NCBI RefSeq assembly: GCF_000027125.1
Contig: NC_017626.1
From: Escherichia coli 042
GTDB lineage: Bacteria > Pseudomonadota > Gammaproteobacteria > Enterobacterales > Enterobacteriaceae
Reading direction: 5' to 3' (one strand)
DNA length: 64,000 nt
The notes beneath the pieces are model-generated. The model saw only the letters and a program-made list of their open reading frames with translations. It had not been told where the DNA came from and searched no databases. Made by a program: the position numbers and the translations under genes. Position 1 is the first letter of the stretch; the number at the start of each line of letters is the position of its first letter. Below, piece after piece: positions 30,631 to 30,906 of the stretch.

Positions 30631-30906
30631 ATGACTAAGCTTTATCACCGCATCTCAGCTTTTCTCTCTGGGTGCTGGGCGTTTATCACGTCTATTTCGT
30701 TCGCCATCTTTAGTTTCGGTAGCACAGCATGCTCGCTTAGTCGGGGTCTGTGGCGTGCTATTTCAGCACTAGCGCCGAAATTTTTACCTGAAAAGGTTGT
30801 TTGGCGAATTGTAGAGCGAATGTGTAGTGAGAGCGTTCGCGAGAAGATTAACGTATTTGGACGTCATCCTCGAAATACAGGCGCATTGTGCAGTTCGTTA
30901 CTGTAG
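30631..30906 (+). CDS. Hypothetical hydrophobic protein
   Basis: 91-aa ORF after Rz (bor position in lambda); no recognised family. Confidence 0.35.
   Translation: MTKLYHRISAFLSGCWAFITSISFAIFSFGSTACSLSRGLWRAISALAPKFLPEKVVWRIVERMCSESVREKINVFGRHPRNTGALCSSLL

Follow-up and report, generated by a model that had tools for sequence, protein, structure and literature searches.

Does the lysis cassette of a lambdoid phage end with its spanin genes, or can a further gene belong to it? The question is raised by a 64,000-nt stretch of DNA from Escherichia coli 042 (contig NC_017626.1), called here the window, in which an open reading frame (ORF) of 91 amino acids (aa) follows the i-spanin gene Rz. The initial annotation had placed this ORF directly after the spanin genes and had hesitated between a membrane-active accessory protein and a spurious ORF. 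Its position was read correctly, the start codon lying 35 nt beyond the Rz stop codon (30595), and the choice can now be narrowed: the accessory nature stands, the gene being optional and its product having a predicted N-terminal membrane helix; membrane activity is a prediction; and the spurious ORF is contradicted by the reading frame, the codon positions, the dN/dS ratios and the ribosome-binding site (RBS). Few gene sets have been studied as thoroughly as lambdoid lysis cassettes, yet about 2% of the complete E. coli genomes carry this gene, which is routinely left unannotated in RefSeq. Whatever its function, automated annotation overlooks here a small phage protein, predicted to be a membrane protein, which is under strong purifying selection. 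The coordinates of the ORF, of its parts and of the surrounding lysis genes are collected in Table 1.

Table 1. The 91-aa ORF, its signals and domains, and the lysis cassette in which it lies (positions in the window).
Feature	Position	Strand	Remarks
Holin S, lambda-type class I	29378-29701	+	Dual-start MKM motif; PF05106, E = 2.4e-30; RefSeq
Endolysin, lambda R type	29685-30161	+	RefSeq 'glycoside hydrolase family 24 protein'; 'endolysin' in HK140
i-spanin Rz	30158-30595	+	PF03245, E = 4.1e-34
o-spanin Rz1	~30357-30542	+	ORF embedded in Rz; lipobox VSAC
Shine-Dalgarno AGGAG of the 91-aa ORF	30620-30624	+	6-nt spacer to the ATG, read directly
91-aa ORF (CDS)	30631-30906	+	ATG 30631, TAG 30904-30906; family phrog_34701; equivalent to the HK140 gp68 gene
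N-terminal hydrophobic helix, residues 8-29	30652-30717	+	Predicted membrane anchor; hydropathy and AlphaFold
C-terminal domain, residues 57-91	30799-30903	+	Amphipathic helix, then tail FGRHPRNTGALCSSLL; alignments, entropy, dN/dS, AlphaFold
Degenerate copy of the conserved hairpin element (GTCATTACAAAGCCCA…)	30906-30935	+	Abuts the stop codon of the 91-aa ORF; downstream mosaic boundary

Downstream of the 91-aa ORF come an AT-rich ORF of 83 aa, a terminator, an HNH endonuclease gene and the genes for the small and large subunits of a P27-type terminase. We detected neither a promoter nor a terminator between Rz and the 91-aa ORF, and a weak terminator-like hairpin (30915-30932) lies 3' of it. 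The GC content of the ORF (47%) is near that of the lysis genes (48-52%), the neighboring AT-rich ORF being at 34%. A tRNA search found none, and an Rfam scan of 29000-32500 returned only matches at chance level. Just upstream of the RBS (window 30603-30630), a run of A residues varies in length from A6 to A9 across loci (among them L015, L017 and L031). In some loci, this length puts an upstream ATG in frame and gives versions of 100-101 aa starting with MKTKK(K)QEQY; in the window, the upstream ATG (30603) is out of frame with the 91-aa ORF.

The length of the ORF is uninformative by itself, as many overlapping chance ORFs of 60-130 aa, similar to it in length, run throughout the region. Moreover, of the 40 E. 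coli records listed for the 113 carrier genomes, 39 have no RefSeq feature at this place, and in the only exception, strain 135, what is annotated is an overlapping minus-strand ORF of 42 aa (WP_257270443.1, 30864-30992). These observations would be expected if the 91-aa ORF were spurious, its conservation coming from a non-coding element or from this minus-strand ORF. The comparative evidence places the ORF above chance and contradicts this reading, which we regard as scarcely credible. Indeed, a word-indexed search of 5.8 billion proteins recovered 50 homologues of 53-93 aa, 45 of which are 90-91 aa long; their identity to the query is mostly 54-96% and their named sources are Escherichia, Enterobacter and Citrobacter. 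A Klebsiella phage also encodes a homologue. Conservation in related phages, which had been proposed as a check, is borne out: among 64 viral loci from IMG/VR (relatives 53-97% identical), the frame of 90-91 codons is intact in 61; of the three others, one has a premature stop, another has a frameshift and the third has lost its start codon. These loci were fetched with peptide patterns from the C-terminal end only, so that the openness of the frame elsewhere constitutes an unbiased test.

The variation itself carries the signature of a coding sequence. Over 34 unique DNA sequences, the mean column entropy at codon positions 1, 2 and 3 is 0.19, 0.07 and 0.74 for codons 57-91, and 0.75, 0.44 and 0.95 for codons 5-56. 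Nei-Gojobori dN/dS ratios range from 0.01 to 0.14 for residues 57-91 and from 0.2 to 0.6 for the N-terminal part, and synonymous sites are near saturation between the most divergent sequences of the gene. The plus frame is open in all 34 sequences, whereas each of the five other frames, including the three of the minus strand, contains at least one stop in every sequence. The CAGGAG RBS is invariant, with unchanged spacing, across all the diverged homologous loci, including those with unrelated upstream flanks. A conserved nucleotide or RNA element behind the invariant C-terminal part was also considered and rejected, since synonymous sites vary freely there; in line with this, no Rfam family matches. 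As for the 42-aa minus-strand ORF, the minus frames carry stops and the DNA 3' of the 91-aa stop codon, which would encode most of it, is intergenic and unconserved between loci; its product matches nothing in PHROGs, Pfam or NCBIfam. We thus rejected it as a real gene, and its annotation over the 3' end of the 91-aa gene is probably a miscall. These comparisons establish that the 91-aa ORF is a genuine gene, which codes for a protein and evolves under purifying selection.

The gene is already known, as a hypothetical protein of the databases. The exact protein was deposited as CBG33653.1 (E. coli 042) and its exact sequence is found on more than 500 contigs in public databases. In phage HK140, gp68 (YP_007111771.1), a 'hypothetical protein' encoded at the same position after Rz, is 97% identical to it. 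The 91-aa protein matches phrog_34701 over residues 1-91 (E = 2.2e-54), a family of unknown function. All 18 family members that we scanned match phrog_34701 and 17 of them also match phrog_24233, which is the match of the distant members and is likewise of unknown function. An exhaustive HMMER profile search of 1.84 billion representatives gave 15 clusters at 50% identity, all of 87-93 aa except one fragment of 53 aa, and a second scan of viral contigs with the distant members yielded just five confirmed loci. The family is small and consists of phrog_34701 together with phrog_24233. Scans of the 91-aa protein found no Pfam family at E ≤ 1, no NCBIfam match and no anti-phage defence family of PADLOC at E ≤ 1; a profile search of the PDB gave no match, and Foldseek against viral structures, with a low-confidence AlphaFold model as query, gave 0 matches. 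Over the 18 family members, Pfam returned nothing meaningful, the one marginal match being to PF10746 (T7 holin) in a single member (E = 0.095). A literature search with two peptide strings conserved in the C-terminal domain retrieved no paper, and the literature on lysis cassettes and on HK140 contained nothing about the gene. What is new here is the evidence for selection, the anatomy of the domains, the linkage to the lysis cassette and the gap in annotation.

The hydrophobic N-terminal half described in the initial annotation was confirmed by hydropathy. Residues 11-29 (FLSGCWAFITSISFAIFSF) have a Kyte-Doolittle value of 1.69 and a summed Hessa dG of about +1.1, and residues 8-29, rich in Ser, Thr, Gly, Ala and Cys, are the most hydrophobic segment of the protein. 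Their hydropathy equals or exceeds that of the helices of the neighboring holin, whose three genuine membrane helices have a Hessa dG of +4.3 to +5.6, i.e., are less hydrophobic than helix 1 of the 91-aa protein. Two AlphaFold runs (pLDDT 63 and 68) gave low-confidence helices only. With an alignment of 48 sequences, the model places helices at residues 2-28, 32-51 and 54-73, followed by an unstructured tail (pLDDT 68, pTM 0.25, i.e., low confidence), helix 2-28 being its best-scoring part (pLDDT 72-83). From hydropathy and these models, we predict a small three-helix protein whose helix 1 would be an N-terminal membrane anchor. In distant members, a second moderately hydrophobic helix is present. 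The close sequences carry more positive charge after helix 1; in the distant members, positive charge precedes helix 1 and follows helix 2. The predicted topology would thus be a single membrane helix with an outer N-terminus in the former, and a pair of helices with an inner N-terminus in the latter. In both variants, the positive-inside rule weakly favors a cytoplasmic location for the conserved C-terminal helix and tail.

It is not in the hydrophobic half that conservation is concentrated, a point that goes beyond the initial annotation, but in the hydrophilic C-terminal 35 residues (57-91), which are rich in charged residues. They carry the motif W-[RK]-[IV]-[IV]-E-R…[LI]-N-[VI]-[FY]-G-x-x-P-[RK]-[SN]-T-G-[AS]-L-x-S-P-L-L (in a shorter form, W-R-I-V-E-R…F-G-x-x-P-R-[SN]-T-G-A-L-x-S-P-L-L), which ends at the C-terminus of the protein. 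W58, T83, G84 and L86 are invariant in the entire family. The several cysteines first noticed are indeed present, at C15, C34, C65 and C87, and only some of them are conserved. A conserved disulfide between C65 and C87 was considered and rejected, as the two positions fail to co-occur across the family.

One of these cysteines bears on the nature of the N-terminus. LSGC at residues 12-15 could be a lipobox with a lipid-modified Cys15, which would make the product a Bor-like or another secreted lipoprotein. The close sequences fit such a pattern (LSGC, FAGC, LTGC, ISAC) and C15 is invariant among them. However, the signal peptide would have no more than 14 residues and its hydrophobic core would be very short, the hydrophobic stretch runs well beyond Cys15, and in distant members the lipobox is broken (FAEC, ISLC, HRLC) or has no cysteine at all. 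We consider a lipoprotein very improbable and rejected it, because the lipobox is not conserved beyond the close sequences. The lack of resemblance to lambda Bor, which the initial annotation had asserted, is confirmed. The two proteins are alike in size and in being encoded just downstream of Rz, but the 91-aa protein has no Bor match in Pfam or in NCBIfam and no conserved lipobox. In lambda, bor lies on the strand opposite to the late operon, whereas the 91-aa ORF lies on the late-operon strand.

The neighborhood of the gene was compared across the family. Among the 11 sequence clusters with a readable context, eight adjoin a lysis cassette, and these cassettes are of five types. In most lambdoid loci, a gap of 31-37 nt separates the gene from an Rz ending in …TQCLK, and the cassette upstream consists either of lambda S, R and Rz or of a pinholin, a SAR endolysin and Rz. 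In at least two loci, the spanins before it are a different pair, encoded separately, and the distance to them is 117-189 nt. Distant clusters place it after an S21-type holin, a lysozyme and a DUF2570 spanin; after holin_8, holin_3_7, an M15 peptidase and DUF2570; or after a muramidase, two small proteins and Rz, in temperate phages which encode a giant virion protein and in which it closes the series of late genes ahead of the integrase. In one distant locus, it lies directly upstream of a holin, a lysozyme and Rz, amid head (structural) genes. Adjacency to the lysis cassette is thus kept at less than 30% identity and in different genome layouts. The three remaining clusters are away from lysis genes: two are among early or DNA-metabolism-like genes, and one occupies an opposite-strand insert of two genes, followed by a terminator, in the interval between terminase and portal genes of BPP-1-like podoviruses of Enterobacter. 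In this insert (L080-L082 5001-5650; L069 4001-4615), the distant member is accompanied by a partner gene of 86-89 aa, a GC-rich hairpin with a T-run stands 35 nt upstream of the start, and the terminator comes after the pair.

The presence of the gene is patchy. We found it in 113 of 5,426 complete E. coli genomes (~2%), whereas the family of its Rz is present in 4,852 of them (89%). Among 161 records of isolated phages with this Rz family, only three carry it (HK140 twice, and N7), i.e., two phages. In phages without it, homology ends at the Rz stop codon; in carriers, downstream homology ends a few bases past the stop codon of the 91-aa ORF, at the conserved hairpin. The gene is an optional single-gene mosaic module, whose upstream junction lies at the Rz stop codon or the RBS and whose downstream junction closely follows its stop codon. 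In phage Louie, another gene (L085 1315-1785) fills the slot that runs from Rz to the conserved hairpin, and its 156-aa product matches the Tad2-like family PF11195 (Thoeris anti-defence 2, E = 9e-27) and is labeled 'anti-CRISPR protein' in the record. Hence, genes with no relation to lysis are carried as cargo in this slot as well. In L070, a distant family member likewise has a Tad2-like gene in its vicinity. Compared with the definition of a moron, the 91-aa gene shows the variable presence among close phages and the mosaic junctions, and lacks the promoter, the terminator and the distinct base composition of its own. The adjacent 83-aa ORF, with 34% GC and its own terminator, fits that definition.

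What could such a gene do? The reading that we tentatively put forward is that of a late-expressed, membrane-anchored accessory of the lysis cassette, acting through its C-terminal tail on a conserved partner. The gene would share the late promoter with S, R and Rz/Rz1 and be transcribed with them, because its RBS is conserved, no promoter of its own was detected and no terminator follows Rz; the gap of 31-37 nt to Rz in most lambdoid loci and the GC content near that of the lysis genes also support late co-expression. Its product would then be anchored in the inner membrane, made alongside the holin, the endolysin and the spanins, and its invariant tail may act on a host inner-membrane or cytoplasmic factor, or on the spanin or holin machinery. 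In this way it would tune when or how the envelope is breached, in a role like that of a holin or antiholin regulator rather than of an essential lysis protein. We favor an association with lysis because the linkage to the cassette persists at such low identity and in different genome layouts. If the gene is a lysis modulator, a new regulator is added to the holin-endolysin-spanin model. A bolder version is less probable still, and we rate it as unlikely: the family would be an unrecognized class of lysis component in phages of Gram-negative bacteria, a membrane-anchored regulator, possibly with a SAR-like helix, whose invariant tail would bind either a conserved factor of the host envelope or cytoplasm or the two-component spanin, and would thereby set or condition the timing of envelope disruption. 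It would amount to a fifth lysis gene, present in the laboratory phage HK140. Several observations weigh against a lysis role. The gene is dispensable and accompanies few of the cassettes with its Rz, a cassette which already has a dual-start holin/antiholin; three clusters are away from lysis genes and the slot holds cargo in Louie; and the C-terminal motif is conserved regardless of the type of holin, endolysin and spanin. A strongly conserved C-terminal motif is atypical for holin tails. In addition, Pfam, NCBIfam, PHROG and PDB searches found no similarity to characterized lysis regulators.

In a rival reading, the gene would be cargo in a variable slot after Rz, unrelated to lysis. The product would be a small inner-membrane protein which serves superinfection exclusion, or which neutralizes or manipulates, via its C-terminal tail, a conserved membrane or cytoplasmic protein of the host, possibly a defence effector. 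Its patchy presence beside a far more widespread Rz, the mosaic junctions exactly at its RBS and stop codon, and the Tad2-like gene in the same slot of Louie point in this direction, as do the three clusters off the lysis genes, one of which is in a moron-like opposite-strand insert with a terminator. A motif that is very conserved whatever the holin, endolysin and spanin also points to a conserved host target, and if the protein is an exclusion or anti-defence factor, its invariant tail indicates such a target. On the other hand, the usual hallmarks of a moron are missing, i.e., the gene has no promoter of its own, no strong terminator and a lysis-gene-like GC content. Adjacency to lysis genes spans five architectures, including the locus upstream of the holin, and the protein matches neither PADLOC nor any PHROG family annotated for exclusion or anti-defence. 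Because the gene is optional, in a cargo-type slot, found in three non-lysis contexts and endowed with a motif independent of the type of lysis proteins, we keep a cargo role (exclusion, anti-defence or host manipulation) as nearly as likely as that of a lysis accessory.

The preferred reading, that of a lysis accessory, can be compared with known systems. By prediction, the protein has the general make-up of a holin: it is small and encoded in a lysis cassette, it would have one transmembrane helix or more, and its C-terminal part is rich in charges. The holins and antiholins lambda S, S21 pinholin, T4 RI, P2 LysA and P1 LydB resemble this family of 87-93 aa in their one or two N-terminal hydrophobic helices and charged C-terminal part. 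They are also encoded within or beside the lysis cassette with late co-transcription, which for the 91-aa gene would follow from its position and signals. The weakly hydrophobic helix 1, rich in Ser, Thr, Gly and Ala, recalls SAR domains. However, the window protein matches no holin family in Pfam or PHROG, and the 91-aa family has no sequence or profile similarity to these proteins beyond the marginal T7-holin match. Its C-terminus is a tight motif and not a loosely conserved charged tail, and few of the cassettes include the gene. T4 RI-type antiholins combine a SAR domain with a periplasmic holin-binding domain; helix 1 of the 91-aa protein is SAR-like, but its C-terminus is weakly favored to be cytoplasmic, and no similarity to RI was found in PHROG or Pfam. 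With LysZ, from a preprint on Corynebacteriales, the parallel is only conceptual. On the side of cargo, T4 Imm and HK97 gp15 are small phage-encoded inner-membrane proteins of superinfection exclusion, specified by optional accessory genes which are not known to be linked to lysis cassettes. Family profile and PHROG searches detected no sequence similarity between them and the 91-aa protein.

The DNA that follows the gene has features of its own. A direct repeat of 16 nt (GTCATTACAAAGCCCA / GTCATTACAAAAGCCA) occurs at 30906-30921 and 31326-31341, 420 nt apart, and flanks the AT-rich 83-aa ORF (31025-31321 region) with its terminator (31296-31321). Besides its low GC content, this ORF has its own RBS and matches phrog_16949. 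Directly 3' of the 91-aa ORF, other loci, among them HK140 and EFF60, have an intact hairpin (CATTACAAAGCCC…GGGCTTGATAATG). Because the repeat brackets the cassette and the hairpin is intact in these other loci, the 83-aa cassette looks like an insertion into the hairpin that follows the 91-aa ORF.

Further downstream, a segment of ~140 nt (31299-31439) contains the terminator, a hairpin with arms of 17 nt (31328-31367) and a third hairpin. Of a 941-nt query, which had hits in 2,623 of the 5,426 E. coli genomes, no other part matched as widely; in many lambdoid, P22-like and Sf6-like phages, this segment is the only part that matches, and it lies there upstream of varied packaging modules. The segment has no match to an Rfam family. 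Both strands give a folding z-score of −5.5, and the segment could act as a bidirectional terminator, or as a boundary and recombination element.
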